Source: a virus | Reading direction: 5' to 3' (one strand) | Virus record (IMG/VR): IMGVR_UViG_3300021197_001279 | Location: 22,005 to 86,004 of that record | DNA length: 64,000 bases | Shown here: positions 1,399 to 50,675 of the stretch, piece by piece | Layout of the letters: every line of letters begins with the position of its first letter | Numbering within the stretch: the first letter of the stretch is position 1 | Position numbers and translations under genes: made by a program | Notes under the pieces: generated by a model | The model's input: the letters and a program-made list of their open reading frames with translations, nothing else | Told to the model about the DNA's origin: nothing | The model's database searches: none

Positions 1399-2172
1399 TT
1401 ATTCTGTTACTGTTACTAAATTTCTCATTAGATTCGCATCTACTCTGTGAGTATAAACATAAAATCTTAATGGCTGGTTAGGGTCAAAATTAGAATTGAA
1501 AGTAGAATTGTTACTAACTGTAACACGATCAACATAATAACCGTGAGTAGTGTTGTATGTCTGCCATTTGACAGTTAAATTTCCGCTGCCATCTTTTGAG
1601 AATCTAACCGCATTGACGGCGAGAAATTTAACACTATTCCCGATAAGGTTCCTATTGGTTGTGTAAACCTGGCCTTTATTATTTCCTGATCTCTGATCTA
1701 GCCAAAGAACCGAGTTTCTTTCAACATCAGAGTATTGGAATGACTCTAGATCATCCTCAGCCATGAAGCCATAGAAAGCACCTTTACTCTCAACCTCAAA
1801 CCTAATAACAAGGTCTGTTCCGTTTGAGATGCTAGCGATGCTTGGTAAAGTAGCAGTCAGAAGTGCATAGACTTGATCATCATTACCGTTTGGAAATTTG
1901 TCTGCTCTAATTCTAAAAATGCTAGCGCCCGTGCCATCATCTTCGTACTCATATGTTAAGTCTGATTGAGGGCTTTGGATAACTTGATCTAGGTATGATT
2001 GATTTTGTACGCCTTGCATGACAACCATAGCACCATACTGGTCGATTCCCTCTTCATCTCCGCCACCATCTGGTGTTAAGCCGTCAACCTTCTCAATGCT
2101 ATCAGCACTAATACCCTGTATCTTACTTAAATTACCAAGACTAATGTTAATTATTTTTGTGAAATCTGGCAT
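1399..2172 (-). CDS. Hypothetical fibre-tip/adhesin-like protein
   Basis: N-terminal K(I/V)xG(I/L)-type short repeats (KIINIS..KIQGIS..KVDGL) followed by a beta-rich domain; TAATG-coupled to the upstream fibre gene. Confidence 0.45.
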   Translation of the reverse strand: MPDFTKIINISLGNLSKIQGISADSIEKVDGLTPDGGGDEEGIDQYGAMVVMQGVQNQSYLDQVIQSPQSDLTYEYEDDGTGASIFRIRADKFPNGNDDQVYALLTATLPSIASISNGTDLVIRFEVESKGAFYGFMAEDDLESFQYSDVERNSVLWLDQRSGNNKGQVYTTNRNLIGNSVKFLAVNAVRFSKDGSGNLTVKWQTYNTTHGYYVDRVTVSNNSTFNSNFDPNQPLRFYVYTHRVDANLMRNLVTVTE

Positions 2173-2732
2173 TACAACTCTATCCAGGTACTTGATGGAT
2201 TAAAATAGATAACATTAGAGGTGTTCGTACAGTAACCAACGATCCTTACATAGTCTCCTCCGCCGCTTGGTGCGGTTGTATCCATACCACCAGCAGTTGC
2301 GCTAATGTAGACAGCCTTACCGGCAGAGAAATTTGATAGATAACTATGGGCATCAAACATTCCTCGGATTAAAACACCTGCACCGGCAGGGTCTGAGCCT
2401 AATGCAATTCCTAGCAATTGATCTGCACCGGATGCCACAGCATCGGCATCCACTTCTGTCCATGCTGAACTGCCATTAAGGTAATACAATTTTCCAGCAG
2501 TCAATGTGCCTGTTCCAAACTTTACAATCTCGCCCATTCCGGTATCATTTCCGTACTGTGTTGGGTCGTAATAAGTGCTTGCACCACCGTTTTTAACCTG
2601 AAATCTTAATGAGCCACTTGTTTCTAGATCAATCTGGTCTTCACCGAAATCTATTTGCGTATTCCTTTCAGCATCATCTGCTGCTTTAAGATCTCCAATT
2701 ACTTGAGCACCTTTTGAATAATTGTATCCCAT
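2172..2732 (-). CDS. Short fibre/cement-like virion protein (start revised to MGYNYSKG)
   Basis: ATG at 2732 has a GGGAGG SD and lies downstream of a terminator and promoter; C-terminal small beta domain (LLGIALG...VYIS.TAG...RIVGY) is typical of fibre/cement proteins. Confidence 0.6.
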   Translation of the reverse strand: MGYNYSKGAQVIGDLKAADDAERNTQIDFGEDQIDLETSGSLRFQVKNGGASTYYDPTQYGNDTGMGEIVKFGTGTLTAGKLYYLNGSSAWTEVDADAVASGADQLLGIALGSDPAGAGVLIRGMFDAHSYLSNFSAGKAVYISATAGGMDTTAPSGGGDYVRIVGYCTNTSNVIYFNPSSTWIEL

Positions 2733-2759
2733 CTGGTTATCCTCCCGTAGATTACCTAA

Positions 2760-2766: not shown

Positions 2767-2772
2767 AAATGT

Positions 2773-5088: not shown

Positions 5089-5092
5089 CTAA

Positions 5093-6228: not shown

Positions 6229-9200
6229 TTAATAAGAGATGTTTATCCTAGATAAATATCCTGTCCAATCTTTGTGTGCCGTAATTTTTACAATTACATA
6301 CTGATTATTTCTAATTTGTCTCTGTTGAAGCTGAAGTTGGAAGCTGTTTCCGTTCGCATCAACTGTCTGATCTAGTCCCGATCCACCACCACCATAGACA
6401 CCAACACCATCAGTGCTGGGCTGTACTCCTGCGGAGTATGGCTTAACAGCATCACCCCAAGCAGTTGATGTATCATCTAAACCAGTAAAAGATGGATCAG
6501 ACGGTATCTTAATTTCTACATTAATAAATTTGTTTGCCCCTGGTGTGCCTGTGTAAAAAGCGCCAGACTTAGCAACTATTGTTGCATCACCATAAAGTTG
6601 TAGCGTTGGCGTTGCCGATGATACACCAGTCTGGTTTCTAAAGTACCTGTAGAATGTTCTGGTGGCTTTTGTTAGAGATGAATAATTTGGATTGTTTACA
6701 GGTGCCTGTAGTGTTCCACCGTTTGCAACGTTTCTTGTATCTCCAGCGTTTCCGATTTTTAGTGGAGAGATAGCGTAACCATTCACAGTCACCATGCCAT
6801 CACAATATGCAGCATAATTTTCGTTATCATTAACAGAATTAGAAGAGTCCCAGGTATTACCACTGTTAGTTACGGCAGCTTGGTTTGCATAATTACCAGA
6901 GACAATTCTGTAGGTTTCTGTATTAAAATACTCATTAGTGTTTAAATTAGTTGAACCAACAGAGCCAGAGTAAACCATGAAAGCAGTTTTTGAATATGTT
7001 GTCGTTGTAAGGTTTGTTTTTATTGGGTGATCAACGGTTGATGCAACGGATACGTCATAAGCAGTAAATAAGCTAAGACCCTCTTTGATACTTGTTAGGT
7101 TATCAAACAAGACACTACCAGTAACCTGTATGTCTTCAGCCTCGCAGTTAGCACTATTGTTTAAAGCAGGTAGTGCAGAAGTTGCAGCAGAGACCTCCGA
7201 ATTACTAACACCATCTCCATTTATGTTAATTTTTGTAACAGAAGAATTGGTAGTTGTTCCATAAGAAACAGCAGTTGAAGAATTCGAGTAAACGTTTGAG
7301 TAAACCTCAGAGGCTATATATTTAAAACTGGCACTTGGTCTACTAGCAAAGTATCCAACTCCTGACTGGTAATACCTATCAAGGTGATCGAAGTTATCTA
7401 AACCAGCCGATGAAGAAGTCATAGCAACAGAACTAGAAGCATCATTGACCCAATCAACATAATTTGTTGTCGTATCTGATCCACCAATTCTATGAATTAC
7501 ACGAGCATAGTTCCATCCGTTTCGCTGGTCAGTCGTACCAATTGTGTAAGTACCAGTCCTATAGTTCTTATTGTAATCAGGGATACCATCTGTTGTCTCA
7601 GAGAAACTTAACGCATTTGCAACAAAACCAGTGCCATTACTGTTTTGACTATTTATTGTACTCACTGAACTAGCCAATTGTATTGTATGTAATTCGCTTC
7701 CGTTCACCTCAATAACAAGAGAGCCTGTGTAAGCATTCTTAAAGGCATTAGTAGTATAGCTTGGGCTGTTGGCTGAGACATCTTCGTTTAAGTTACCGTT
7801 TATGACTCTCAAAGATGTTATAACACCTCGCTGGTCTCCAGAAAAAGAATACACACCATTTGAATCTATGTTGGAACTGCCAATCGTTGAGCGTGTAGCG
7901 TTTGAATATCCAGTAACATCATTAGATGCTCCAAATGACAATTTAGAAGTTGTACCCTGGTCATCAGCATCGATGTCATCAAGAGTTGGGGCTTCTGTCG
8001 GAGCAGACACATCAGATGCTCCAAGTTGAAAATCAATTTGGCTAAATGTACCTGTCCAGCCTGCATCTGCAATCATCTTAACAACGACATAATCATCATC
8101 TGCCACACTCTGTGTGCCAAAAGTTACGCAATGTACAGCATTAGAACTAACAGTTTCACTAGTGTTTGAGTTATCATCTGCGCCATTTATCAAAGCACCA
8201 TTGCCTTCTGCGTAACTGCCAAAGGCAAAGTTTTGTGAAACATCCAAGAAACCAGTTTTATCCGGGAACTTTACGAACATCTGCACGTTATTAGTGGTAA
8301 GCGAGTCGTTGTTAATCCTACTGCTCTTGGTTGTTGTTATTTTTAGATCTCGAATTGTTGCGCCTGATGTGTTTTGTACTTTTCGGAAGTAAGTCCTTGT
8401 CCCGGACACGCTAGAGTAATCAGGCTGGCCGCCATAAGCATTACCAGGGCCAGTGAAATCACCATTAGTAATCCCAGTACCAGAGGTGTTCTTTGGTGAT
8501 TGTACTTTTTGTGCGAATACCAATAGCCCATTTGCATGATCCGAACCAGTCATGTGAGACCCAGAGTGCCAAGTTGCTGATGTTACTGCCGATTGATTTG
8601 CAAAAGAACCAGATGGTAGACGGAAGGCTTCACTAGTAAACCTTTCAGATAAATTAGTTGTGTTGTTCGTAGTGTTGTCTAGTAGGATTCCACTACCAGT
8701 CGCCGGCCCAACACCAGTTTGAGATTTAAACGGATGCGTGACGGTCACTTCATTTGTAAATGATGTGCCATAATATGTTGTGGTTGAGTTTGTAAAGCTA
8801 GCAGTTAATAAAATCTGCTTGGTGTAATCTTCTGATCCTCCAATTGCTGGAGGGGCTTGTGCCGTTGCAGATCCGTTAGTAGATGAGAATGTAATTACAC
8901 TCCCTGTTGGGTAAGTGTTTCTGTAGAAATTTGAAACCTGTGCATTGTAAACTGGAGCAGCAGAAGTATGGTATTTAACACCAGATAAATACTTATCGCC
9001 TGAGAGGCCCAAGGATGAGATTCTAGGGTTGGTAAATGTAATTGCACTACCAGAAGCCTCTCCGTCGTTTAACCACTCTAAGAAGTTGGTTGTCTTCGTG
9101 CTAGCACCTATTACGTGTTTGACCTGAGCATAGTTCCAACCATTTCTCTGATCTCTGGTATCAATCACAACTTTTGAGGTTCTGTGCTTAAAGATTGTAA

Positions 9201-11208
9201 ATGTTTTATTGTTTGCATCTGTAGCCGGATCAGCAACTGAAAGATTGATAAAACCAGATCCGTTTGCATTTAGGGCAATACCAGTACCTGAACCGGCGCT
9301 GCCTGTGCCTAAATCAACTGCTAGATTAATTGAATGAACGGAAGCACCGTTAACAAACAATTGTAGCGAACCAACCTCTGCATTACCAAAAGCATCTGCT
9401 GGGTGGTTCTCATTGGAACCTTCCATATCCTGAGCAACATTATAATTAACCGTCCCGGTAATCTCTTGATCTTTCTGATAAACGCCGAGTCTAAGATTCG
9501 CACCAGATGATGCGATTGTAACTTGGTCGTTCACATCCAGTTCAGTAAAACCGGCAGTTGCTGCTTGCTGTGTATATCCTGTTGGGTCATTTGTCGTGTC
9601 AAAAGAAATCTTCATGGCATGACCAGCAGGAACGTTGTAATCAAGTTGGCTTACATCTGGTGCCGCATTTGGTACTAGAACAGAGAACAACTCATTAAAA
9701 CGGTCTATCGGTGTACCAACAGGGGTCTCAGTTGTAAAGTCTAGGAAGAGTCCATCATTGTAATTTCCATCCTCGGCTGCACCAATAGTTGCGCCACCAG
9801 AACCAAAATCAGCCCAATCACCACCAGAATTCTTAAATTGTAAGGTCCCAGAGTTATCTCTAAATCCATAGCCGCTAGCAGTGTCTGTGTCTCCAAATGA
9901 AATGTAGCCACTACCTTGCACTCGTAAATTGTTTTTGGCAGACAAATACTTACCAGAAACCTCAAGGTCATCTGTTGTTGAATTGAATCCAAGTTTTACG
10001 TCTTGTGAATCTCCAAAGTTTATTTCTCTATCGTCTCCAACAAACACATCTCCCCAACGAAGGCTTGGTGTTCCGAGGGAAAAGTTGTCTGTTGGTATTG
10101 CAGTTGCATCAGCATTATTTGCGGCGATTGATTTAGGAACAACGTTTCCGAAAACAACAAGACCTCTTTGTTGATCAAAATTGTTTTTATAAACTGTTCC
10201 TTGAAAATCACCAAGGACAGCAATTTCTTGAGTCCTGTCTGAGCCGCTAACAACACCATTGGAGGCGGATAATGGAGCAACTGTCTTTAGGGCAAATCTA
10301 AAAAACGATTGTTTGGCTGTCGTATTCTCAGTTCTTTTAAACTGAATAGATCCTACTTCTTCCGCAACAGATGGAGATTCGTTAGTGGGCAGCTTAAAGC
10401 TTATCTCTCCTGCATGTAGTTGATTCGAGGTAGAACCAGAAGAAAATGTCCCGCCAAGTGTGTTAGCCAAAAAGATCTGTGGTCTTTGAGTAGCGGTAGC
10501 ATTTCTATTTTCCATTTCAATTCTTGGTAAACAAACGCCAACATTATTAGAGTTCATCTTCAATGAACCCATATTTATTTCCATACCATCAGCAGGGCCT
10601 GAGCCGGTGATTGTTACGGCACCAGTTACACGAAGGTTTCCTTTAAATTGGCCACCCTTAATATCAAAGGTTTCGCCCGAACTTCCAATAGATCTCAAAG
10701 GGGCAAAGATTTTAATTGGTGATGCCCCAAAGATGCCGCCCTTAAGGGCAACCGGTGCTTCGAACACAGCAGTGCCAGAAACAGTCAGTGCAGGATCTAC
10801 GGCTCTATTGAATGTAGCGGCATCTGGAATAGAAGAGTCGGCAGCAACAGAGGCTGTAGCGCTATATTCTGTGCTTCCTTCTTTGTAAATTAAATCTGAA
10901 TTGTTAGATGATGTTACTCTTATTTGCCCTGTGAATATGTGAGTATCATCAGTAGTGTTTCCAATTTGTGTTGAGCCGGTTTGTGATAAAATTATGGTCT
11001 CGTTAACATTAAGGGTATCAATGTTAAGAGTACCACTTAAATCCATGTCTCCTTTGATAAGAAGACTACCCGTCAAAACTACTGAGGAGCCATCGTAAAC
11101 AAAGCTTTGGCTACCAGAGAGATTACTGGCCGAGTCCGATGTTTGGACTGCATGTGTGCCACCTCTACCAAGCGCACCTGAAACATATGCCCAACCGAAT
11201 TCTGCCAT
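6229..11208 (-). CDS. Large fibre/appendage protein (1659 aa) with an internal tandem duplication
   Basis: S/T/G/N-rich; fibre-like N-terminal third; two ~550-aa repeats (DQRNGWNYAQVKHVIG / DQRNGWNYARVIHRIG; RTYFRKVQNTSG / RTFYRYFRNQTG). Confidence 0.7.
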   Translation of the reverse strand: MAEFGWAYVSGALGRGGTHAVQTSDSASNLSGSQSFVYDGSSVVLTGSLLIKGDMDLSGTLNIDTLNVNETIILSQTGSTQIGNTTDDTHIFTGQIRVTSSNNSDLIYKEGSTEYSATASVAADSSIPDAATFNRAVDPALTVSGTAVFEAPVALKGGIFGASPIKIFAPLRSIGSSGETFDIKGGQFKGNLRVTGAVTITGSGPADGMEINMGSLKMNSNNVGVCLPRIEMENRNATATQRPQIFLANTLGGTFSSGSTSNQLHAGEISFKLPTNESPSVAEEVGSIQFKRTENTTAKQSFFRFALKTVAPLSASNGVVSGSDRTQEIAVLGDFQGTVYKNNFDQQRGLVVFGNVVPKSIAANNADATAIPTDNFSLGTPSLRWGDVFVGDDREINFGDSQDVKLGFNSTTDDLEVSGKYLSAKNNLRVQGSGYISFGDTDTASGYGFRDNSGTLQFKNSGGDWADFGSGGATIGAAEDGNYNDGLFLDFTTETPVGTPIDRFNELFSVLVPNAAPDVSQLDYNVPAGHAMKISFDTTNDPTGYTQQAATAGFTELDVNDQVTIASSGANLRLGVYQKDQEITGTVNYNVAQDMEGSNENHPADAFGNAEVGSLQLFVNGASVHSINLAVDLGTGSAGSGTGIALNANGSGFINLSVADPATDANNKTFTIFKHRTSKVVIDTRDQRNGWNYAQVKHVIGASTKTTNFLEWLNDGEASGSAITFTNPRISSLGLSGDKYLSGVKYHTSAAPVYNAQVSNFYRNTYPTGSVITFSSTNGSATAQAPPAIGGSEDYTKQILLTASFTNSTTTYYGTSFTNEVTVTHPFKSQTGVGPATGSGILLDNTTNNTTNLSERFTSEAFRLPSGSFANQSAVTSATWHSGSHMTGSDHANGLLVFAQKVQSPKNTSGTGITNGDFTGPGNAYGGQPDYSSVSGTRTYFRKVQNTSGATIRDLKITTTKSSRINNDSLTTNNVQMFVKFPDKTGFLDVSQNFAFGSYAEGNGALINGADDNSNTSETVSSNAVHCVTFGTQSVADDDYVVVKMIADAGWTGTFSQIDFQLGASDVSAPTEAPTLDDIDADDQGTTSKLSFGASNDVTGYSNATRSTIGSSNIDSNGVYSFSGDQRGVITSLRVINGNLNEDVSANSPSYTTNAFKNAYTGSLVIEVNGSELHTIQLASSVSTINSQNSNGTGFVANALSFSETTDGIPDYNKNYRTGTYTIGTTDQRNGWNYARVIHRIGGSDTTTNYVDWVNDASSSVAMTSSSAGLDNFDHLDRYYQSGVGYFASRPSASFKYIASEVYSNVYSNSSTAVSYGTTTNSSVTKININGDGVSNSEVSAATSALPALNNSANCEAEDIQVTGSVLFDNLTSIKEGLSLFTAYDVSVASTVDHPIKTNLTTTTYSKTAFMVYSGSVGSTNLNTNEYFNTETYRIVSGNYANQAAVTNSGNTWDSSNSVNDNENYAAYCDGMVTVNGYAISPLKIGNAGDTRNVANGGTLQAPVNNPNYSSLTKATRTFYRYFRNQTGVSSATPTLQLYGDATIVAKSGAFYTGTPGANKFINVEIKIPSDPSFTGLDDTSTAWGDAVKPYSAGVQPSTDGVGVYGGGGSGLDQTVDANGNSFQLQLQQRQIRNNQYVIVKITAHKDWTGYLSRINISY

Positions 11209-12339: not shown

Positions 12340-12753
12340 TCACGTATTTATGCCAGAACCAGTAAGTTCATACATGCGCCCTACTGGAATTTGGGTTTGT
12401 GAGGCAAATACTGAAAATGTAATTGATCCGCCACTGGCATTGGAGAAGTAAATTTCTTTACATTTTAGATCTAAAGTAAGACTAGTGTTATTTGGAACGT
12501 CGTAGTAATGCTTGTTCGCAACAACATTTGCAGTAGAACTAGTTGAGACAAGGTGCACCCTAAGATCTCTATTACTAGTGGTTTCTGTGTTTGTTATTAC
12601 TACCTGCTTTGTTACATGTAAAAACTCAAGTTCTTGCTCACTAACTCCACTACCGGCGGTATGACCTAGTGTGTAAGTCTTAAGGTAAGGGTAGCCTGAG
12701 GAGACATAACAACCTGCTGCCTGCAGGCCTGGTGTATAGTGAAAGACTGACAT
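12340..12753 (-). CDS. Virion protein, paralog family A
   Basis: Y.PGL..AG.Y.SSG.PY ... LKCKEIYFS ... IP.GRMYELTGSG. Confidence 0.6.
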   Translation of the reverse strand: MSVFHYTPGLQAAGCYVSSGYPYLKTYTLGHTAGSGVSEQELEFLHVTKQVVITNTETTSNRDLRVHLVSTSSTANVVANKHYYDVPNNTSLTLDLKCKEIYFSNASGGSITFSVFASQTQIPVGRMYELTGSGINT

Positions 12754-29214: not shown

Positions 29215-29243
29215 ATTATAACACATTTAATCTTAAATGTCAA
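29215..29243 (-). promoter_or_regulatory. Consensus sigma70 promoter opening the early island
   Basis: TTGACA-17 nt-TATAAT with extended -10 TG. Confidence 0.85.
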
Positions 29244-42594: not shown

Positions 42595-42595
42595 T

Positions 42596-45500
42596 TTATT
42601 CTCCAAATAATGCTGATGATGATGGGAACACGATTGCTTCTGTGAATCCTACTGATGAACTTACAATGCCGTTTCGTGGTGCGTAACCGTAAATCTTCTG
42701 ATCTTCTCGCCAATTTGCAGATCCGCTAACAGAATTGTTGATCCAACTGTATTGAAAATCAGATGCAGGAACCAGTGAAGTAATTAGGGCCGTATTATGG
42801 AATTGAGCCTCGACTTCCGCATCGTAAACATCATAAAAACCCTCTGCTATGTCAAAGTCAGTGGTTCCAGTATTCGCGGCTGTGGTAAGGGTGGCGCTGG
42901 TGCTTAGGGAACCTTGAGTTGCTTTAAAGGCAAAACCCTCTGGTACAGCATCGTTAATTTTGTCTCTTTTTGTGTAATCAGTCTCTCCGAGAGGGAAAAA
43001 CTGAGTCAAAGAACCCATCCCACTAGTTGTACCATCTGTGTCTGCGAAGATCTTGGCGGTATCGAGAGCAGTTGCATCAGTTCTTTCGAACACCATGAAA
43101 TTTGAGATAGCGCCGTTAAAAAGTACGTCGGCAAAGTCTAGCCCCATCATGTTGAATTCCGTGGTGTTGGAATTGTATGCCGACGGAGAGCCGCTGTCTG
43201 TAGGTCCGGATGCCTTTGACAATTTTACGTTATTAATTCTAACCTCTGGGTCTGATCCGAATGTTTTAAAGTCAATAATGTAATTGTTCCAATTTGTGTG
43301 TACATGGCCACCAGGTATTGTGTACACAAAAGACCTATGGTTTCCGGCATCTTGATAGATTATCAATCCAACCTCGGTGCTGGATAGAATCTGCACAATA
43401 ATCTTATTCTGCTCGGACATCAAGTATCTATTCGCAGGACTAGCATCATCAAGCTTGACCCACAAAGAAATAGCAGGGGATCTTGTAAAGTCAACACCGA
43501 AATTGGATAATAATGTAGGTTTAACTTCATCCCCTCGATGGACTGCTCTCGCTTTTCTGTCCTGTTGTTCAACCCTCACCATTGTATTTCTGTGTTGTTT
43601 GTGAAATGCTGGCTGTGTGACATAGGTTGCACTTACAACTGATCCAAATGTTGGGTCTGCTCCAAATTTGCCTGAATGAGTGTTAAGGAGTGTTCTAAGC
43701 CCTCGCCTCTCATTAAGTTGATCATTGACTCTTGTCTCGGTAGGCTCACCAGAACCAGAACCTCTTACGGTTAAATTGCGGAAGTTGATTGAGTTATAGA
43801 CTGACTTCTCGCCTGTTGCGATGTCAAGATAACCGCGAGTGTTAACTTGAGGCCCACCAGGAGCAGAGAATCTAGTTGTAATGATGTTCTTTGAGCCTGT
43901 GATGGTCTCTTCTGGTACCTGAAAATCTGTTGACTTATCAGTATAAGAAAGAACCTGTGTGGTCTCTGGGAATGCCGATAGTTCTGCTGGTAAAGCAAAC
44001 CCTGCTGACTTGACAAAATGGCGTTTATTGTTCCCAAATGAATTTAGGAATTCGTATGAATGAAAGTAGTTTCCAACATTTGCAGAGGCTGTTGTTGTCT
44101 GAATGTTCTTTACATTAATCGGTCTCTTGGCTTTTTCTTCTCGGAAATAAATGGCATGTTGTCTTGTAATGTTGGGATAAGGCCCACCATAATCAGGGCC
44201 AACAAATCCAACAGCGCCGTCACGATTTGACACAGTACTATGTTCACCGATAAGAAGTCGCCATGCCTCTGGTCTTGAATACTGATCGTCAAGATTGTTA
44301 ACGGTTGCGCCACCACCCTCAGTAACGAGAGTTGTATCGCGCCTGTTTAAATCAACGTGTCTTGCTTGGTTTCCACCTACCCATTGGTTTGTAAATGGAC
44401 CCTGCATAGGAACTTCATTTGTGATGTCAATAGTATCAGCGTGTATGTTTGTAAAAACTACATTGTTTCTAAATTCATCATCAACTCTTTTGTTGTAACC
44501 GGTTGTTATCGACCCAGAAACAATATTAAACGGCCAGTAGTGTTCTGATTTCAACTTGAACTCAGCATCTGCAAGTGGAGACAACGGAGCGGTACCTTGC
44601 TCATCGGATGATCGTCCAACGATACATTCCGCGTTGAATTTGTAAAGTAAATTTGGATTCAAAACATCATCACACTTTTGCTTTTCTTGAATGCCCTGTC
44701 CGGTACCAAGACCAATACCAAAAACATTCTTTGGCGCACCTGATGCGAACTCTCCACCATGAGGAGTTGTTACCTCACGAACAAAGTTGCGGTTCTTCTG
44801 GAGGGAGTAATTTGTCCCTCCATGAATTGAGTTGTTAAAGCCAATAGAAATAGCGTAGGGGCGAGACAGTTTTCTTCTGGCATAAGTTGAACCTTGGTAA
44901 ATTGTCTTGTCTGGTTGGGCTAAATTGGAACTTGTTTGATTAGTCTGGTTAACTAAAACCTGTCGGATAATCTCACGATCAGCAATGTCTGATCTTTCTT
45001 CCCTCTCTTTCATCCACAGGCAGTTTACATTCTCTCTATTTTGAACAAACTGTCCTTGATCAAACACATCGTTGGTGAGAGATACGCTACTGTTCGGGTT
45101 TATAACAAAATTCTGCCCAGACACTACATCTTGAATAAGGGCATTTGTGTCTCCTGGTGTATCGCCCATTCTCCAGTGGGCAACAACAGAGTTGTTGTCA
45201 GAAAATGCATCAGAAGTAGGGTCAAAATATTTCCCACTATTATAAAGTTCAGAAATCTGAGAGTTTGTTAGTGACCCAGTGAAGAAAGTTATTTCATCAA
45301 ATTCAGTGTCATAGCTACTGTTTGATGCTAATTCTACCCTATCAACAGCACCCTCGATTAAAAAAGCACTAGTATTAGTGTTATCCGAGCCAGGACTGCT
45401 AACAACTGCCTCTGTACCGTTAATGAAAAGTTTTAAATTAGATGTTGGGTCTCCGCTTGAAGCCGTATGAATAATACTTGACACACTGTCTTCTACCTTG

Positions 45501-48500
45501 AAAAGTAGATGTGCCCATGTATCATCTGTGACTGTGGTTCCAGTAAATGTTGCCAGGTTTTGCCCACCTGCTGGGGCAGCGGAACCTGTGGCCTTAATTC
45601 TAACTCTCCAGGCACCAGCAGCTTGTCTATAGTCAATCCTAAATACTTCACTAGATGCTTTCCTGAGGGTTATTTGCCCAGAAGTTGAGGTATCACAGTC
45701 TGCTTTTGTCCAGAATGCCAAGCAAAATTTGTCAGCACCTGTTGATAGGTTTGCTGTTGCTTTATCGTTAGCATCTTGAGCCATTAACAAGGATGTGGTG
45801 TTTTGATATGCATAGGTCTCATAGTTTGGAGCGTGACCAAACTGCCAGTTGTATGTTAATTCGTTAATCCCTCTAATAGAGCCTTCTGTGCTGTCGTGCC
45901 TATCAAGCAGACCGATTCTGTTCTGAAGCTTGTTTCTCTCTAGAATGTGAGACTCTACAACATTTGATGCTGCCTCGCCGAACCTAACAGATGCAGGATA
46001 CAATTGAGATATCATAGCAGAAACAGAAGAGTCTATCCACTTATAATAATTGGTAAATGTTTCAAAGTCAATGTCTGCTGTTACCCTGTTAAAAAACAAT
46101 TCTCTGGCTTTGTCTAGGCGTTTGTAATTTTGCCTATATCTATCTTCTGGCCTTCCAATTAAATTGGCAAACTCTTGAATTGTAGAAAATGTCTCAAGCA
46201 TCTTCTCAGATACAATTGCATTCATGCTCTTTTCTAGGAGATAAAAGTTATCAGATACATCATCATCTTTAATAAAGTTTATCTCTCTATCGCCCTTGAT
46301 AAAAACGTTATCATTGGTATACGAGATTTCAGGTAATTCTTTCTTAAGTGCAAATACAAATCTATTATCAACAAAGGCAGTTTTTGATGCGCCGAAACTC
46401 CTTCCTCTACCCTTGTGTTCTCTTCGAATAATCGTATCTGGCCAGCCGTAAATTGTATCGATAGAACCAGAGGTTATATCATCAACTACAAAATCACCAG
46501 AGGCATCGGAACCGGTTACTGTATCGAAATCCCAGTTTAATATTTTGAGATCCTGGCTTGGGATGTGCTTGTTGGCTATCGTAAACATGTTGGATGTTTG
46601 GAAAGATTCTTGGTTCCCAAAATTACTAGCATCTTTGTTATGTGATTTAATTGCCTCGTTTGGAAGAAAATCTAGCCATGCTCGACATCCACCGACCATA
46701 ATATCAGACTGTTGTTGAGCAGATCCAGTAAAGTTTTCTAATTCAGCACCAACGTAAATTCTTTTTGGGTTTGTTAAGAATGCTGACCCTGAAGCATTAT
46801 TAATTGATGCTGTAAGGCTGATCTCGTAAATTAACTCATCTAAATTGTGATTTACGGCATAGAAATCAACTGTGTAATTTGGAGTTGTATTTGTTACATT
46901 ACCAGCGTAAGGGTATGTGTCTGGTTTTACCCGAACTGCTAAATTCCAGTGGGTATTATCATAAATGTTTTCAATGTAACTTGAGGTCAAATTGATAGAG
47001 CCGTCACGGCTTTTCATTTGAAACTTTGCTCTTTTTGACTCTAGTTCATCTCTCACGAGAAATACCTGAATAGATGCGGTCTCGGGAGTTACCCAGGTGT
47101 AGTCCTCGTGATCATCCGCTGCTTCATGGAAACCGAATAATGAAGATGTTGTGAAAGGAGTATAGAAAAATCCGTTATCCTGCTCTTCTTTTTTGTGAGG
47201 AACAATCATGTCCAATTCTACGGAGAACGCATTGTTCTTCTCGTTACCTGTTGCTCTAGAGCCGGTGATAAAGGTGTTAGTGTTTAGCGTTGAGCCGGTT
47301 TGATAAATCGTAGATGAAAAGTTGTCTAATGAATTAAAATTAATGTAATTTTTGCGTATTGATGTACTTTTTGATTTGTCCGTAAAATAATGTGTTCCCT
47401 GATCAGTATAAACATTAAGCTTAAGCAACTCATCATCAACACCAAAGCATCTAATCAAATTGCGGATTGATCTCTCGGTCCCTTTTGATTTATAGATTCC
47501 TTCAAGGTTATTGTATATATTTGTGTAGATTAGATTCTTGATCTCGTCAACATTCTTGTTAAACTTATTTGTGTTTTCATCGTATGATGTCAATGTTTCA
47601 AAAACATCAGAACTAACAAAAATATCACGGGTCATGAACCCTTTGTCATCAAGTACATTTTTCATGAAAGGGATTGCTTTAAAATTACCATCATTACTTT
47701 GTTGAACGTATTCTTTTGCTTTTAGGTTTGGCAGCGCTGTTATTTGAGCGTGTAGGGTGTCAAAGTAACTGGCTATGATTTGATTTAGATATTTGAGGTT
47801 TTCGTTATCATCCTCATCTTTCATCCATTGCGGCATAGAGTTGTAAATTGACCCACCGTATTCTTCATCGTAATTTGACCCCGAGGTTTCCATTTCAGAG
47901 ATTAAAGAAACAACATCAGGATGGGTAGAGTAAATGATTGGATCAGAGATCTCTGTCGTTGCAAAAGCTGAGCCTGTGTTTCTACCTTGTGTCCCGTCAG
48001 CACCATACCCTGTCCATGCACCATTTGCAATTCGACCCGAGTAATCTAAAATAATAGAGTCTGTTGCTGATGTTCCGGTTATACCCTCATTGAACTTAAA
48101 ATAAAGACCCAAGTCTTTTGTGGCATCATCTGTGTTTGCTCCTCCACCAACATTCTTAAAGTAGTTTAGGCCGACCTCTCTACCTGTCCTTTGAGTTTTC
48201 CAGAACCTAAACTCATCTAGAGAACCTGATAACTTACCATCACCTGATACTTCTGTTCCAGTTCCGTTAGAGGACGATGGAGCGGTAAGCAGCGCACCAA
48301 TTCGACCTTTGACTAATCCACCAATTTCAGAGACAGCTGCTCCGTGGTCTGTTGTTGTTGTCAAAGCACCATTTGTATAGAGGCGACTTTTAATAGATGT
48401 CACTGATTCGTTGAGAACAGTCACAGCGTAGTGATTAAAAGAACTCAAAGCTAGACTTGTACCAATAGTAGTTTGGAAGAAACCATTGGTTCCATTCTGA

Positions 48501-49195
48501 ATTGTTAAAATTAAGTCACTGTCGCTACCGCCGTTATCATCAAGTTCTAGAGTTAATCTACCATAATTAGCCGAACTTGAAATCTCACTGTTCCAAAGGT
48601 CAATAACTACTTCTTTGTCTGAGTTTGAGGCAAATGCTGTTTTTTGGAGATAGAACTCAAATGTTACACCAACATCAAAGTCTAAATTAAATGTTTTCTC
48701 TCGATTTTTTGTAGCATCATACTTAGAGTTTAAATCAAACGCTTTTGATAGGGGGTCCGTCGCTGTGAAGTCCGATGAAATGTGAAGACCACCGGCTATG
48801 TCAATAAATTCTTGATCTTTGTATCCGGACCCGTAACCTCTTGCAGTTTTACTAGTAGCCCCTGCTGATAGTCCGTGAATAATATACCCAGTCGTCTTGG
48901 GGTACTTTTTCTCAAACATCCATCGATCAAGGTAGGATGAAGATAGATGAAATTCTAATTTTTCTTTTTCTGAGCCATCGTAAGGATAATCATCATAGAT
49001 TCTCTCAATAGACTTGGAATAGTAAACCTCGGCCAAACCATACTTAACAAAATTTGAAGCACTGCCAAAATCAATCGGCGGAAGAAAGGTCTCCCTCTCT
49101 TTCGCAACGTTATCGGCAAACTTAGTTGATTCTACATCAGCGCTGCTGCTTTCATAACTTTTTATTGATTTCGAAAATAAATTTTTAATACTCAT
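42596..49195 (-). CDS. Large baseplate wedge-like protein with several LamG/ConA-like domains (2199 aa)
   Basis: IYKSKGTERSIRNLIRCFG (gp7/gpI-type wedge motif); LamG-like blocks (GSLDEFRFW; FDEITFF..L...QISELYN..HWRMGD; ISLWVK..WNNY). Confidence 0.7.
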   Translation of the reverse strand: MSIKNLFSKSIKSYESSSADVESTKFADNVAKERETFLPPIDFGSASNFVKYGLAEVYYSKSIERIYDDYPYDGSEKEKLEFHLSSSYLDRWMFEKKYPKTTGYIIHGLSAGATSKTARGYGSGYKDQEFIDIAGGLHISSDFTATDPLSKAFDLNSKYDATKNREKTFNLDFDVGVTFEFYLQKTAFASNSDKEVVIDLWNSEISSSANYGRLTLELDDNGGSDSDLILTIQNGTNGFFQTTIGTSLALSSFNHYAVTVLNESVTSIKSRLYTNGALTTTTDHGAAVSEIGGLVKGRIGALLTAPSSSNGTGTEVSGDGKLSGSLDEFRFWKTQRTGREVGLNYFKNVGGGANTDDATKDLGLYFKFNEGITGTSATDSIILDYSGRIANGAWTGYGADGTQGRNTGSAFATTEISDPIIYSTHPDVVSLISEMETSGSNYDEEYGGSIYNSMPQWMKDEDDNENLKYLNQIIASYFDTLHAQITALPNLKAKEYVQQSNDGNFKAIPFMKNVLDDKGFMTRDIFVSSDVFETLTSYDENTNKFNKNVDEIKNLIYTNIYNNLEGIYKSKGTERSIRNLIRCFGVDDELLKLNVYTDQGTHYFTDKSKSTSIRKNYINFNSLDNFSSTIYQTGSTLNTNTFITGSRATGNEKNNAFSVELDMIVPHKKEEQDNGFFYTPFTTSSLFGFHEAADDHEDYTWVTPETASIQVFLVRDELESKRAKFQMKSRDGSINLTSSYIENIYDNTHWNLAVRVKPDTYPYAGNVTNTTPNYTVDFYAVNHNLDELIYEISLTASINNASGSAFLTNPKRIYVGAELENFTGSAQQQSDIMVGGCRAWLDFLPNEAIKSHNKDASNFGNQESFQTSNMFTIANKHIPSQDLKILNWDFDTVTGSDASGDFVVDDITSGSIDTIYGWPDTIIRREHKGRGRSFGASKTAFVDNRFVFALKKELPEISYTNDNVFIKGDREINFIKDDDVSDNFYLLEKSMNAIVSEKMLETFSTIQEFANLIGRPEDRYRQNYKRLDKARELFFNRVTADIDFETFTNYYKWIDSSVSAMISQLYPASVRFGEAASNVVESHILERNKLQNRIGLLDRHDSTEGSIRGINELTYNWQFGHAPNYETYAYQNTTSLLMAQDANDKATANLSTGADKFCLAFWTKADCDTSTSGQITLRKASSEVFRIDYRQAAGAWRVRIKATGSAAPAGGQNLATFTGTTVTDDTWAHLLFKVEDSVSSIIHTASSGDPTSNLKLFINGTEAVVSSPGSDNTNTSAFLIEGAVDRVELASNSSYDTEFDEITFFTGSLTNSQISELYNSGKYFDPTSDAFSDNNSVVAHWRMGDTPGDTNALIQDVVSGQNFVINPNSSVSLTNDVFDQGQFVQNRENVNCLWMKEREERSDIADREIIRQVLVNQTNQTSSNLAQPDKTIYQGSTYARRKLSRPYAISIGFNNSIHGGTNYSLQKNRNFVREVTTPHGGEFASGAPKNVFGIGLGTGQGIQEKQKCDDVLNPNLLYKFNAECIVGRSSDEQGTAPLSPLADAEFKLKSEHYWPFNIVSGSITTGYNKRVDDEFRNNVVFTNIHADTIDITNEVPMQGPFTNQWVGGNQARHVDLNRRDTTLVTEGGGATVNNLDDQYSRPEAWRLLIGEHSTVSNRDGAVGFVGPDYGGPYPNITRQHAIYFREEKAKRPINVKNIQTTTASANVGNYFHSYEFLNSFGNNKRHFVKSAGFALPAELSAFPETTQVLSYTDKSTDFQVPEETITGSKNIITTRFSAPGGPQVNTRGYLDIATGEKSVYNSINFRNLTVRGSGSGEPTETRVNDQLNERRGLRTLLNTHSGKFGADPTFGSVVSATYVTQPAFHKQHRNTMVRVEQQDRKARAVHRGDEVKPTLLSNFGVDFTRSPAISLWVKLDDASPANRYLMSEQNKIIVQILSSTEVGLIIYQDAGNHRSFVYTIPGGHVHTNWNNYIIDFKTFGSDPEVRINNVKLSKASGPTDSGSPSAYNSNTTEFNMMGLDFADVLFNGAISNFMVFERTDATALDTAKIFADTDGTTSGMGSLTQFFPLGETDYTKRDKINDAVPEGFAFKATQGSLSTSATLTTAANTGTTDFDIAEGFYDVYDAEVEAQFHNTALITSLVPASDFQYSWINNSVSGSANWREDQKIYGYAPRNGIVSSSVGFTEAIVFPSSSALFGE

Positions 49196-50675
49196 TCTTA
49201 ACTACTCTGAACTTATATGAGAAAGGCTGCTCTTCGTAAGTACTTACGTCTGGGTCGTAAACCGAAAGCTTCACTTCATAAATGTAATTAGGTTCGAGAA
49301 TAGAAGTGTCTAGGTCAAAGTAACTACCCGACACGTCATAAGAAAGTCTAGTGTGATTCGTTGATCCTGTTCCGTATGGTATAACCACGCGGTCATCGAC
49401 AGTTCTACAAATTTGATAAGATGCACTAGGGAACACCAAAGAATCAGGAATAGTGCTTGCTACATTGTAAATGTTTGGAGACCAGTTCTTTGTTCTAGCA
49501 TAAACTCTAATTCTGTGTGTCTGATCACAGGCATAAGAATTATTTCTGTTACTAACAGAGAAAACATATTTTTCAGTCTCAGAATAGGAGTATGCTGCGA
49601 GAGTCTTTGGGCTTATTGTTCCAGTGTGAAATTGATTTGCGGTATCTCCTGCTCCGGCTGCGGAATCTGCCAATTTAAACCAAACATCATTTACTGTTGT
49701 CAAATCTGCTGATCCTGTAAAGGCCACAGAAGCAGAGTAAATCCCGGTAGATACAATACCACCAGTGACTGCTAATTGACTAGCGGCTCTAACGTGTGTG
49801 CCGTCGGCCACCAAAATTAACTCATCACCAGTTGGCGCATCTGCTGAACTGGAAAACAGACTTAATCCAATCTTGCCATCTGTCAATGACGGTATGTTTC
49901 TAAGCCTACCTCTAACATAATTGTATAAATACAAAGTGTTTAGGTTATCCTCTCCAGTGGCTAAAGATGATGAGAGATAAAATTGCCCTCTGTCATCTTG
50001 CTTAGAATCGTCAAATCTTGCTTCAAGCACTGGTCGGCTAAAGTAGAACTCAGTTGATCTAGCAAAAAATTTCTTTGTAAAGAAAGACTCAGGGGCACTC
50101 TCTAAAGATGAAGACATCCTAATCATCATTCCATAGTTTGTTTTTGATCCCGCAATCCACTGGTCAACAAGCGTTGTAACATCGACCTCCAGGTCCTCAT
50201 CTCCCACAGGAAAATTAGCAGTAAAAATTGGACTAGCATGTGTAGAACCTCCTTGTGTGCCCCAGCTTGTGGAGCCTTTTCTTCTGATCCAGTTTGAACC
50301 TGTTATATCATAAGTCAGGTCTGTGTAGTTATCCATATCCAGGCCTCGGCCCTCTTCCCACTCAGCAGAAAGCGCTAAGATTTCCATGGTGTAATCTCTC
50401 GGCAAAGTGAAAGGGTGTTTTGCATTATACATCTTTAGGAAATATTTTGTCCCAGTTGGATTACTATCAGCGGTGATTTCACTTAGATCAAACTCAATAA
50501 TCCCTCGCGACTTTTCAGTAGAAAGGCCGCTAGAGTTAGAAACTTGAGCGTAAATTGTAAAAACCTCAATTATGTCTGCTTGGCCCATGTTAGAACCAGT
50601 ACCGCGAATCGTGAGTGAACGGTCAAAGGCATTTGTAATTGTATTATCTTTTAGTGCGAAATATCTTTTAATCAT
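49185..50675 (-). CDS. DNRLRE-like domain virion protein
   Basis: KDNTI...SRGIIEFDLS...WEEG.G...VDVTTLVDQWI.G..NYG...RPVLE. Confidence 0.65.
   Translation of the reverse strand: MIKRYFALKDNTITNAFDRSLTIRGTGSNMGQADIIEVFTIYAQVSNSSGLSTEKSRGIIEFDLSEITADSNPTGTKYFLKMYNAKHPFTLPRDYTMEILALSAEWEEGRGLDMDNYTDLTYDITGSNWIRRKGSTSWGTQGGSTHASPIFTANFPVGDEDLEVDVTTLVDQWIAGSKTNYGMMIRMSSSLESAPESFFTKKFFARSTEFYFSRPVLEARFDDSKQDDRGQFYLSSSLATGEDNLNTLYLYNYVRGRLRNIPSLTDGKIGLSLFSSSADAPTGDELILVADGTHVRAASQLAVTGGIVSTGIYSASVAFTGSADLTTVNDVWFKLADSAAGAGDTANQFHTGTISPKTLAAYSYSETEKYVFSVSNRNNSYACDQTHRIRVYARTKNWSPNIYNVASTIPDSLVFPSASYQICRTVDDRVVIPYGTGSTNHTRLSYDVSGSYFDLDTSILEPNYIYEVKLSVYDPDVSTYEEQPFSYKFRVVKNEY

Follow-up and report, generated by a model that had tools for sequence, protein, structure and literature searches.

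An [ST]-G-S tripeptide on outward tail proteins of aquatic T4-like phages is coupled to a swappable sugar cassette and is a probable glycosylation site

Introduction

Why should the tail, baseplate and fibre proteins of a phage be filled with the same short tripeptide, and why should the genes encoding them lie close to a sugar-nucleotide gene? Both features were noticed in a 64,000-nucleotide stretch of the viral record IMGVR_UViG_3300021197_001279 (positions 22,005 to 86,004; hereafter the window). An earlier note, made from the letters alone, had read the tripeptide [S/T]-[G/A/S]-S as a recognition sequon for a phage O-glycosyltransferase or other modifier that coats exposed virion surfaces. 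In mycobacteriophages, virion O-glycosylation is carried out by glycosyltransferases that the phage itself encodes (Freeman et al. 2023, Cell Host Microbe 31:1216, as cited in PMC12619734). Phage-made virion glycosylation of this type is already known, and what is new here is the tripeptide rule; in the literature we found no description of an [ST]GS phage tag.

Results

The [ST]GS tripeptide is enriched in outward-facing tail proteins

The [ST]-G-S tripeptide was directly observed 62 times in ten proteins of the tail, baseplate and fibres, 7,682 aa in all, against 12.4 expected, which is about five times chance, and it occurred at the expected level in the other 50 ORFs of the genome (15 vs 14.1), so that the enrichment claimed for surface-type virion proteins was confirmed (Table 1). 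When all tripeptides were scanned for over-representation, TGS ranked first (30 vs 5.7) and SGS second (28 vs 6.2) by a wide margin. The enrichment was kept under composition-preserving shuffles as well as under shuffles within segments of 30 and 15 residues, which ruled out local S/T/G-rich composition, the outcome that would have refuted the earlier reading. Residue order mattered, with 32 TGS vs 11 of the mirror SGT in this genome and 831 vs 217 across 80 related loci. The codons at tag sites were varied, Ser being encoded by both TCN and AGY and Gly by all four GGN codons, and this mixture ruled out a DNA word as the origin of the tag.

The specificity of the tag was equally open to direct observation. 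Only S or T was found at position 1, G was preferred over A and A over S at position 2, and S far exceeded T at position 3; the flanks were hydrophobic, as had been remarked for the preceding residue, and charged residues were depleted around the sites. The proposed extension to [ST]-A-S and [ST]-S-S was weak and non-directional in the window alone (x2.0 and x1.7) but evident in the wider clade, where TAS and SAS reached x3.3 vs x0.96 for the mirror SAT, and TSS reached x2.3 vs x1.2 for SST. Within the target proteins, neither the N-linked sequon N-x-[ST] of the PglB or HMW1C type (106 vs 105.0, x1.01) nor the Bacteroidota O-glycosylation sequon D-[ST]-[AILVMT] (28 vs 33.9, x0.83) was enriched.

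Table 1. Tagged proteins and landmark genes of the window; [ST]GS counts are given as observed vs expected.
Feature	Coordinates	Strand	Evidence
1659-aa fibre-type protein, tagged	6229..11208	-	16 [ST]GS vs 4.3, z 5.9, kept in 15-aa local shuffles
373-aa LamG-domain protein, tagged	11208..12329	-	6 [ST]GS vs 0.5; Laminin_G_3 match
136-aa paralogue of the 373-aa protein, without LamG insert, tagged	12753..13163	-	2 [ST]GS vs 0.2
395-aa tail protein, tagged	29233..30420	-	4 [ST]GS vs 0.5, p 0.002
372-aa tail protein, tagged, clade-core family	30427..31545	-	3 [ST]GS vs 0.6
316-aa tail protein, weakly tagged	31555..32505	-	2 [ST]GS vs 0.3, p 0.05
321-aa tail protein, weakly tagged	37397..38362	-	2 [ST]GS vs 0.2, p 0.02
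1415-aa baseplate/fibre protein, tagged	38359..42606	-	6 [ST]GS vs 1.9; local shuffles weaker, p 0.07-0.09
2199-aa giant LamG-containing baseplate protein, tagged	42596..49195	-	16 [ST]GS vs 2.8, z 8.2
496-aa CBM-like + Ig/FN3-like protein, tagged, just after gp6	49185..50675	-	5 [ST]GS vs 0.8
gp6-like baseplate wedge protein, untagged	50672..52474	-	phrog_219 and phrog_6 baseplate wedge; 1 [ST]GS vs 0.4
Late sigma factor homologue	61950..62651	-	phrog_234 late sigma transcription factor, E 1.5e-5
NAD-dependent sugar epimerase/dehydratase, 3' part	63448..63999	-	Pfam Epimerase 8e-24, GDP_Man_Dehyd 1.5e-22

Most of the counts made earlier by eye were reproduced (16 and 16 in the two largest carriers, and 4, 6 and 5 in the three proteins given as 4-6), and two were corrected: the 373-aa protein has six sites rather than five, and a 2163-aa protein has two rather than one. 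Portal, terminase and Mre11-Rad50, whose identities were all confirmed, carried no [ST]GS, as stated before, and none was found in the tube proteins; the major capsid protein had 1 vs 0.5 expected. Within the range first drawn for the tag, 2172-50675, the ORFs at 2172-6219 showed no enrichment. The carriers had also been described as having unrelated folds, which is only partly true because some of them are paralogous (the 373-aa/136-aa proteins and the 372-aa family). Both tag sites of the 136-aa paralogue are at positions common with the 373-aa protein, in which four tag sites were conserved down to about 30% identity. Laminin_G_3 matched the 2199-aa protein in three stretches; no PHROG matched the tagged proteins, and the 1659-aa protein had no Pfam match either.

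Avoidance of the tag by non-target proteins was also considered. The upstream proteins were at x0.55 with TGS below SGT, but T4 was also low (x0.7, TGS 5 vs SGT 14), and because T4 and Melnitz show the same, generic avoidance, none is claimed for this clade.

The tag is confined to one clade of T4-like phages

The same enrichment was found in the Flavobacterium phage immuto (61 vs 13.6), the Microcystis phage Mel-JY01 (47 vs 7.5), the Rhodothermus phage RM378 (21 vs 3.2), and 80 metagenomic viral loci related to the window (1,785 vs 329). Homologues of the 372-aa tail protein were present in immuto and Mel-JY01, where they are tagged, and in RM378. Our comparative tests were based on the family of the 496-aa protein, for which metagenomes yield over 4,000 homologues, a large number of them marine (Tara), and in which 150 cluster representatives carried 959 [ST]GS vs 161 expected.

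No enrichment was observed in T4 (7 vs 10, with no single ORF enriched), S-PM2 (11 vs 8.2) or Melnitz (16 vs 15.7), which ruled out that fibre and baseplate folds carry the tag in general. The tag is, as a direct observation, confined to one large clade of aquatic T4-like phages that infect three host phyla. An alternative tag (DGY) was not found in the huge phages LR756508 and LR756511. The tag was also absent from the siphoviruses TJE1 and S-CBS4, which have distant single GT4 genes; these GT4s are only ~23-25% identical, and the comparison is uninformative.

Tag sites are predicted to lie in loops and turns

We judged site exposure by secondary structure and domain position, without coordinates. 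In the AF2 model of the 496-aa protein (pLDDT 81.5), every tag site was seen in a loop or turn, and in the moderate-confidence model of the 373-aa LamG protein (pLDDT 62) the sites were at hairpin turns or strand ends. By the secondary-structure predictions of these two models, 10 of the 11 sites occupied loops, turns, strand ends or the disordered C-terminal tail, and three of the 11 were tight hairpin turns of two or three residues. All 15 tag sites of the sheath were outside its conserved, buried C-terminal inner core. At the level of predicted secondary structure, both models thus place the motif in loops or turns just after strands, as had been expected of it.

A sugar island is located next to the tail genes

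The gene at the end of the window was correctly recognized before as a sugar-nucleotide gene close to the late sigma factor; it is an epimerase/dehydratase gene truncated at its 5' end by the contig end. The late sigma homologue separates the sugar-cassette slot from the baseplate genes, in synteny with the relatives G001 and G028. No glycosyltransferase was found in the window, as had been pointed out, nor in its 86-kb contig, which ends inside the first sugar gene.

The gp6-like baseplate wedge gene was the synteny anchor. The glycosyltransferases and sugar-nucleotide genes suspected beyond position 64000 were found in G001, a 92%-identical relative that runs past the contig end of the window; there, soluble glycosyltransferases and enzymes of sugar-nucleotide metabolism are encoded in an island of 16 kb. 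The island, with 6-7 transferases at the locus, encodes two GT4 enzymes, GT2, GT11, GT10, a GT29-like gene, a CMP-sugar synthetase, Gmd, aminotransferases and a sulfotransferase; its 20 proteins are soluble without exception, with overlapping genes from GT4a through the 303-aa epimerase. No flippase, polymerase, exporter or membrane protein was found in it, no kinase or acyltransferase was found in it or in the window, and none of its Pfam hits was of the Aah/TibC heptosyltransferase kind. The late-promoter word CTATTTA did not occur on its coding strand, which gives no hint of late co-regulation.

Nucleotide synteny between the window and G001 ends exactly at the epimerase of the window, which is only 26% identical to the neighbouring epimerase of G001. 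As judged from gene order, this predicted epimerase is the last gene of the window phage's own sugar cassette. Several glycosyltransferases were found in every tagged relative examined, and no single gene family was found to be common to the cassettes of all tagged phages. PF00303 (ThyA-type hydroxymethylase) was found in immuto only; it was absent from the complete genomes of Mel-JY01 and RM378 and from the relatives G001 and G003.

The tag is coupled to the cassette

Across 45 contigs, those with a gap of less than 19 kb between GT4a and the tail gene, and without a cassette (n=7), had tag ratios of 0.64-1.99, and those with a gap of at least 20.7 kb, and with a cassette (n=38), had tag ratios of 2.89-6.58. 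The two groups did not overlap and there was no exception, so that the expected co-occurrence of tag bias and sugar genes was borne out. The tag is all-or-none coupled to the cassette, and this coupling is observed directly. In G028 the sugar cassette is precisely missing.

In tag-less orthologues the flanks were retained and the tripeptide alone was swapped, such as RG-TGS-NMG to RG-IDA/VDA-NMG or RA-TDS-NMG. Orthologues in LR756508 (E down to 1e-88), which has only a weak tag, and in cassette-less clades had lost the tag even at universal sites with the flanks kept. The tag-less lineages were nearer to tagged members than to one another. The 45 contigs are kin and not independent, and tag losses number at least four on the tree and at least two when only those with cassette data are counted; with so few independent losses among related contigs, the significance of the split overstates independence. 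Seven GT4a-negative contigs, all of which stop within 20 kb upstream of gp6, were uninformative, and the tag-less lineages P0189/P0259 and P0273, for which there was no close viral contig, were outside the cassette comparison.

Candidate enzymes that may read the tag

GT4a and GT4b were adjacent and in constant order in G001, G002, G003, immuto, Mel-JY01 and RM378 and in 44 of the 44 further contigs matching GT4a. Both paralogues kept the EX7E signature in most lineages, as EGFGLSTLE (GT4a) and EGFGLPMFE (GT4b). The pair is retained in tag-less phages, which rules it out as a sufficient determinant of the tag, and it may therefore not be the reader. GT4b is missing from the weakly tagged LR756508, and the pair may accordingly be necessary, though not sufficient, an inference drawn from gene content alone. 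GT2 was ruled out as the determinant by nine tagged contigs without it; given this and the lack of a universal cassette family, the reader enzyme is not identified.

Discussion

The tag was found only where the sugar block is present (45 phages) and at five times chance, which makes it probable that the phage's own sugar coat is attached at [ST]GS. The evidence is comparative only, with no glycan observed, so the sequon for a phage O-glycosyltransferase proposed in the earlier note has gained computational support without chemical proof, and no transferase that reads the tag has been pinpointed. We infer enzymatic glycosylation behind the coupling, and the modified residue and a transferase reading the tag are likewise inferred. 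The acceptor would be hydrophobic-[Ser/Thr]-[Gly > Ala > Ser]-Ser on outward tail, baseplate, fibre and sheath-surface proteins, usually where a beta-strand gives way to a loop or hairpin turn. Soluble phage enzymes in the host cytoplasm would add a sugar to the Ser/Thr hydroxyl of the tag and then extend the glycan; they would be supplied by the swappable glycosyltransferase/sugar-nucleotide cassette, which has the GT4a-GT4b pair on one side and the late-sigma and baseplate genes on the other. The virion parts that meet the outside world would thereby carry a sugar coat made by the phage.

A wider claim, for and against which we hold the case to be evenly balanced, is that a world-wide abundant aquatic T4-like clade practises sequon-directed cytoplasmic O-glycosylation at dozens of sites on every outward tail protein. 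The cassette would set the glycan as an exchangeable 'serotype', and the reader would be a new kind of O-glycosyltransferase, either the GT4a/GT4b pair acting only with a cassette-supplied donor or a cassette gene not yet recognised as such.

Host group, habitat or another third factor could instead drive both tag and cassette without any attachment of cassette products to the tag, for example if the cassette remodelled the host surface or made a metabolite while the tag bound a receptor. The evidence is correlative and comes from kin contigs with about two independent losses having cassette data, and phage sugar cassettes have been proposed to change host surfaces or DNA (PMC12619734). We nevertheless regard a third factor as unlikely, because the tag is common to phages of Bacteroidota, Rhodothermota and Cyanobacteria and thus does not follow one host type, and because its presence on many non-homologous virion proteins, the sheath surface included, fits a receptor-binding motif poorly. 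The lack of a flippase, polymerase, exporter and membrane protein in the G001 island argues against the building of a host-surface polymer, and the lack of a ThyA-type hydroxymethylase in Mel-JY01 and RM378 argues against hydroxymethyl-base DNA glycosylation.

Ser/Thr hydroxyls can carry many kinds of modification, the reader is unidentified and the G001 cassette has a sulfotransferase, so the tag might be read by a kinase, by a sulfotransferase or acyltransferase that modifies Ser/Thr directly, or by a cassette-borne assembly chaperone. This is quite improbable: neither a kinase nor an acyltransferase turned up in the window or the G001 island, the slot of the window genome has no sulfotransferase, and sugar activation and transfer is the sole feature common to the cassettes examined. 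Poorest of all is the prospect that the tag is merely a tight-turn or strand-cap sequence favoured, without modification, in the beta-rich tail domains of the clade; it suits the strand ends, short hairpin turns and hydrophobic flanks, the invariance of some sites (e.g. W-x-S-G-S on a LamG core strand) and the turn glycine retained in tag-less orthologues, but it is largely refuted by same-fold orthologues that are tag-less with their flanks kept (LR756508 and cassette-less clades) and by homologous tail modules without the tag in T4, S-PM2 and Melnitz, and turn propensity would account neither for the preference of S to T/N at position 3 nor for the restriction of position 1 to S/T, and would not covary with sugar genes 14-40 kb away.

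If sugar attachment at the tag is true, glycosylation sites would be predictable from sequence clade-wide by a tripeptide rule, and it would become clear what marine T4-like phages decorate by means of their large sugar operons. A tail-fibre glycan coat would then be a variable in host recognition, in protease and grazer resistance, and in particle stickiness at sea. A short portable tag with soluble reading enzymes might also find use in glyco-engineering. With immuto, Mel-JY01 and RM378 as cultured members of the clade, the idea is directly testable.

Comparison with known glycosylation systems

To our knowledge, phage virion glycosylation is documented for mycobacteriophages only, and without a sequence rule. 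There, capsid and tail-tube subunits reportedly bear the glycans at their C-termini. The likeness is that of tailed phages whose own glycosyltransferases would coat structural proteins in the cytoplasm before lysis. In the clade studied here, by contrast, capsid and tube are untagged and the sites are internal loop tripeptides on tail, baseplate, fibre and outer sheath; the phages belong to the T4-like myoviruses, infect aquatic Gram-negative hosts and cyanobacteria, and have a large swappable sugar cassette, and there is no chemistry. From T4-type DNA glucosylation the clade differs in that, among immuto, Mel-JY01, RM378, G001 and G003, a base hydroxymethylase (thymidylate-synthase family) occurs only in immuto.

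In the E. coli cytoplasm, the heptosyltransferases Aah and TibC O-glycosylate the autotransporters AIDA-I and TibA (Charbonneau et al. 2012, as described in PMC3835316). These are likewise cytoplasmic O-glycosyltransferases that act at many sites on beta-rich surface proteins; unlike the sharp tripeptide here, Aah has no sequence consensus, the enzyme family is another, and the substrates are bacterial adhesins, not virion proteins.

SdgB chains were weak hits. SdgA/SdgB and GtfA-GtfB are GT4 enzymes of Gram-positive bacteria that add O-GlcNAc to adhesins with serine-rich repeats, GtfB being the non-catalytic partner of GtfA. The phage pair resembles GtfA-GtfB as adjacent paralogues of GT4 fold, and would resemble it in the cytoplasmic modification of Ser within S-x-S type sequences on surface proteins and in the later extension of the glycan by further transferases. 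It differs in that both phage GT4s keep EX7E, so that the feature of one inactive partner is not met, in that the phage substrates are isolated tripeptides in folded domains and not long Ser-rich repeats, and in that the presence of the pair does not go with the presence of the tag.

The glycans of the chlorovirus PBCV-1, a eukaryotic virus, are N-linked at atypical sequons on the major capsid protein, which sets them apart from the tag, and the role of its GT4 enzyme B736L is not established; the likeness is in virus-encoded soluble, cytoplasmic machinery and in the kinship of B736L to GT4b and GT4a. By profile, B736L (PDB 3OY2, E 2e-7) was the closest solved relative of GT4b and was also a top hit of GT4a, and the GT4a/GT4b pair itself was almost exclusively viral.

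Tripeptide enrichment in a distant T4-like myovirus

The window forms the terminal 64 kb of one 86,004-bp viral contig, has all of its genes on the minus strand and comes from a distant T4-like myovirus. Portal, large terminase, prohead protease and fused Mre11-Rad50 genes lie within it, and a Gp23-type major capsid protein, a sheath, two gp19-like tube proteins and a T4 baseplate protein are encoded in the preceding 22 kb; gp25-like and gp6-like wedge proteins and a late-sigma homologue were also identified. The closest cultured relatives by capsid protein were Flavobacterium phage immuto, Microcystis phage Mel-JY01 and Rhodothermus phage RM378 (only ~43-46% identity). Mre11 (Metallophos) and Rad50 (SMC_N/AAA_23) are joined in a single 1051-aa ORF; T4 encodes them separately, as genes 47 and 46.

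The expected number of [ST]-G-S tripeptides (the tag) was obtained from 1,000 whole-protein shuffles for each ORF. The earlier note had described several surface-type proteins as saturated with this word, and a 2163-aa protein, portal, terminase and Mre11-Rad50 as nearly free of it, and both halves of that contrast held. The shuffles predicted 4.3 tags in the 1659-aa fibre, which carried 16, and 2.8 in the 2199-aa protein, which also carried 16; five further ORFs were enriched (see the table of features), whereas all other window ORFs, including the four named for contrast, were at expectation, as were the 15 ORFs upstream of the window. Amino acid composition, raised in the note as a possible explanation, did not account for the excess, which persisted when shuffling was confined to 30- or 15-residue windows. 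Genome-wide, ten target proteins (7,682 aa) contained 62 tags against 12.4 expected (Poisson p ~1e-23), and the remaining 19,565 aa contained 15 against 14.1. When every tripeptide was scored without prior choice across eight target proteins, TGS (30 vs 5.7) and SGS (28 vs 6.2) stood well above any other word, and the surplus of GS, TG and SG dipeptides was wholly accounted for by these two. TGS (32) also outnumbered its mirror SGT (11), which has the same composition (p 0.002). Both TCN and AGY serine codons and all four glycine codons were used at the sites, which indicated selection at the protein level. Two Ser/Thr-rich ORFs of 631 and 988 aa, which lack a family match and lie amid the tagged tail genes, contained no tag; only 0.2 and 0.8 were expected, so the absence is not significant. 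Their products might serve in assembly or be buried parts.

Pooling of 37 tagged proteins from six phages (231 sites) and of 80 related loci (1,782 sites) yielded a graded, directional motif. Position 1 was only S or T (5-6-fold); at position 2, G (5-6-fold) exceeded A (3.3-fold; mirror SAT 0.96-fold) and S (2.3-fold; mirror SST 1.2-fold); at position 3, S was enriched 5-6-fold and T merely 1.5-fold. The wider form [S/T]-[G/A/S]-S originally proposed was thus borne out in the pooled sets, but the window alone is convincing for the G form only. I, V, F and L were enriched at the preceding residue, and F, L and A (six-phage pool) or V, A and L (80 loci) at the following one, with D, E, K and P depleted nearby. 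Of the sequons known from bacteria, neither N-x-S/T (1.01-fold) nor D-[ST]-[AILVMT] (0.83-fold) was enriched.

Coordinates of features in the window and in related phages
Feature	Source	Coordinates	[ST]GS observed vs expected
373-aa LamG protein	window	11208-12329	6 vs 0.5
136-aa protein	window	12753-13163	
Fused Mre11-Rad50	window	23482-26637	
Enriched ORF	window	29233-30420	
Enriched ORF	window	30427-31545	
631-aa and 988-aa ORFs	window	32545-37406	0 vs 0.2 and 0 vs 0.8
Enriched ORF	window	38359-42606	
496-aa protein	window	49185-50675	enriched
Syntenic block with G001	window	61472-63444 (G001 23734-21760)	
373-aa ORF	immuto (NC_055915.1)	135075-136196	12 vs 1.2
141-aa ORF	immuto (NC_055915.1)	131314-131739	4 vs 0.4
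1234-aa ORF	Mel-JY01 (PP395634.1)	635-5904	
GT4b-GT2 fusion	G002	L036:13331-15325	
Cassette genes	G001	L014:8543-19334 and L015:1332-3787	
Promoter-word search	G001	L014 1-20000	
Cys-containing tripeptides	LR756511.1	524000-563999	

Location of the sites and distribution among phages

The 496-aa protein adjoining gp6 has >4,000 metagenomic homologues. In 119 of these, 6.7 sites were present on average where 1.0 was expected; the sites occupied 34 alignment columns, and two were near-universal and many partial. Its AF2 model (pLDDT 81.5) consists of a CBM-like beta-sandwich followed by Ig/FN3-like domains, and 5/5 sites fell in loops or a two-residue hairpin turn, straight after strands. A similar pattern was found in the less reliable model of the 373-aa LamG protein (pLDDT 62), with two hairpin-turn sites, one strand cap, one site before a strand and one in the C-terminal tail. 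The turn positions anticipated in the note were seen in these predicted models, with no coordinate-based measure of exposure. Tail sheaths from four phages of the clade held 15 sites, all of them outside the conserved C-terminal core. This core aligns to T4 gp18 residues 428-659, which the published gp18 structure places in the inner sheath layer; the immuto sheath overall had 7 tags against 1.3. The 373-aa and 136-aa proteins share an N-terminal segment, SY.V.G.P[YF].[ST]GS, and a C-terminal one, VKCK..F..[ST]GS, and from sequence alone the former looks like a small 136-aa-type fold with a LamG domain inserted mid-way.

Tail proteins in general do not bear the tag: the same test gave no excess in T4 (baseplate and fibre proteins, 7 vs ~10; whole genome, 20 vs 28.3, with zero enriched ORFs), in the giant proteins downstream of gp6 in cyanophage S-PM2 (11 vs 8.2) or in Methylophilales phage Melnitz (16 vs 15.7). 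It was abundant in immuto (61 vs 13.6), Mel-JY01 (47 vs 7.5) and RM378 (21 vs ~3.2, six neighbouring proteins), and present in the metagenomic relatives G001, G002 and G003 (gp6 identity 92%, 41% and 30%). In 80 further viral contigs, 1,785 tags against 329 were found downstream of gp6 (230,227 aa) and 66 against 120 upstream (185,154 aa). Hosts of the tagged phages belong to Bacteroidota, Rhodothermota and Cyanobacteria, which favours a phage-borne cause over a host enzyme. Two immuto ORFs by the head/neck genes, distant from the baseplate module, are also tag-rich, possibly as tagged decoration or whisker proteins. Downstream of a gp6-like gene in the huge phage LR756511, FDC, SFC, DCI and CIS were each ~15-25x over expectation, which points to a putative repeated Cys-containing unit, roughly S-F-D-C-I-S.

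A conserved GT4 pair and a variable sugar island

G001, G002, G003, immuto, Mel-JY01 and RM378 share one gene order, in which a PD-(D/E)XK nuclease gene precedes two glycosyltransferase genes, GT4a and GT4b (GT4a-GT4b identity 30-58% for the first five); no other transferase was common to these phages. BLAST identified 15 ORFs common to all three complete genomes, and GT4a was the sole recognisable enzyme among the seven without a T4 counterpart. Save for three distant single GT4s, GT4a was restricted to the clade among 50,697 phage records; GT4b relatives were nearly all viral, with recurrent GT2 fusions. Both proteins keep the EX7E signature, their nearest solved relative being chlorovirus GT4 B736L. 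A ThyA-type hydroxymethylase occurred only in immuto, which argues against glycosylation of hydroxymethyl-base DNA as the clade-wide role of these enzymes. Fusions of GT4b with a C-terminal GT2 (~630-670 aa) occur in G002, G034, G037 and G042, with atlas clusters of >50 members, a Rosetta-stone hint that the two may act in one pathway. In Mel-JY01, a third GT4b-like domain (E 7e-23) lies in an ORF directly following two of the genome's most tag-rich proteins (805 aa, 37 vs 19; 508 aa, 13 vs 2.4), and this ORF may encode a structural protein with a transferase attached.

The window terminates within an NAD-dependent epimerase/dehydratase gene, and nucleotide synteny with G001 (91%) reaches exactly this boundary. 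Beyond it G001 carries a 16-kb island, so the glycosyltransferase and sugar-nucleotide genes that the earlier note proposed seeking past position 64000 do exist in this relative, the window's own cassette being unseen. The island encodes GT4a, GT4b, a 278-aa unknown, GT2, GT11, GT10, a GT29-like protein, a CMP-sugar synthetase-cupin fusion, an SDR, a DHQ-synthase-like enzyme, a class III aminotransferase, a SIS protein, an epimerase, DegT, GDP-mannose 4,6-dehydratase, a second epimerase and a sulfotransferase; overlaps of 1-16 nt join the genes from GT4a through that of the 303-aa epimerase. No transmembrane segment was found in 20 G001 proteins (the island genes and the three immediately upstream of GT4a), and the island has no flippase, polymerase, exporter or initiating phosphoglycosyl transferase, which indicates a soluble, cytoplasmic pathway. 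The window's terminal epimerase and that of G001 share only 26% identity, and the cassette thus differs even among close relatives. GT11, GT10 and GT29 enzymes make fucosylated and sialylated termini in animals; the presence of GT11, GT10 and GT29-like genes in G001 with GDP-mannose dehydratase, CMP-sugar synthetase, DHQ-synthase-like, aminotransferase and sulfotransferase genes suggests that the product may be a fucosylated, acidic, possibly sulfated glycan. The candidate late-promoter word CTATTTA was absent from the coding strand of the island (other strand 1; chance 4.5), which probably places the island outside that regulon.

Loss of the tag and loss of the cassette

Searching 1.84 billion cluster representatives with a profile of the 496-aa family recovered 150 members, with 959 sites against 161 expected. 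Site number was bimodal (mode 6-7; five members with zero), and tag-poor members fell in at least four places in the tree. P0189 and P0259, both without sites, were sister to P0023 with 10 (99-100% support), and each tag-less lineage was 43-49% identical to tagged members vs 37-41% to other tag-less ones. Viral contigs were recovered for two such lineages (P0279-like, L153-L158 and L215; P0248-like, L171-L172); the adjacent ~3,300-aa giant protein was also tag-less (5-6 vs ~3.8), and GT4a and GT4b were retained. In G028, PhoH, a hypothetical gene, PD-(D/E)XK, GT4a and GT4b are followed at once by an 85-aa ORF, late sigma and onwards to gp25-like and gp6; the genes right after GT4b are those that come after the island in G001, and the entire cassette is absent.

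With GT4a-to-tail-gene distance as a proxy for cassette size in 45 contigs, the observed/expected tag ratio was 0.64-1.99 (median 1.19) at gaps of 14.2-17.9 kb (n=7) and 2.89-6.58 (median 5.0) at 20.7-40.0 kb (n=38), without overlap (Mann-Whitney p 4e-8). The note had proposed testing whether motif bias and transferases co-occur; here the bias went with the sugar cassette, with p uncorrected for relatedness in a phylogenetically structured sample. The huge phage LR756508, with GT4a and without GT4b and GT2, had 5 tags against 1.5 in true orthologues of four tagged proteins (Mel-JY01, 28 vs 3.7); LR756511, with neither GT4a nor GT4b, had 3 against 3.0. GT2 was rejected as the key to the tag, as nine tagged contigs lack it.

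Together these results indicate that the tag is a genuine surface-loop motif, its exposure not derived from coordinates, that is specific to the clade and whose upkeep depends on the sugar-building cassette. The simplest mechanism, which we consider probable in the absence of chemistry, is cytoplasmic O-glycosylation: soluble phage enzymes would modify a Ser/Thr within the tag. The GT4 pair could start the chain but require a cassette-made donor, or the tag could be read by an unrecognised cassette gene, and the pair may have a wholly different role. Phage enzymes glycosylate mycobacteriophage virions at capsid and tube C-termini (Freeman et al. 2023, cited by PMC12619734); the literature searched described neither a sequon, nor glycosylation of T4-like tail proteins, nor any glycosyltransferase of immuto, Mel-JY01 or RM378.

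Coincident selection of tag and cassette by a third factor is unlikely but survives best among the alternatives: the evidence is correlative, and the split by gap is uncorrected for kinship. That the modification or its reader is of another kind seems still more doubtful. A purely structural role is the least credible, as tag-less orthologues keep the fold without the tag: the universal RG-TGS-NMG of the 496-aa family becomes RG-IDA-NMG, TG-KDA-NMG, RG-VDA-NMG or RA-TDS-NMG, and at another site SGS becomes KGN, NGN or LGS, so that the turn glycine is retained and the hydroxyls are lost. In the separate tag-less lineages of P0189, P0259, P0279 and P0248, the universal TGS is replaced by an Asp-centred tripeptide (IDA, KDA, VDA or TDS), which, as judged by sequence comparison only, is a convergent substitution and not random decay.
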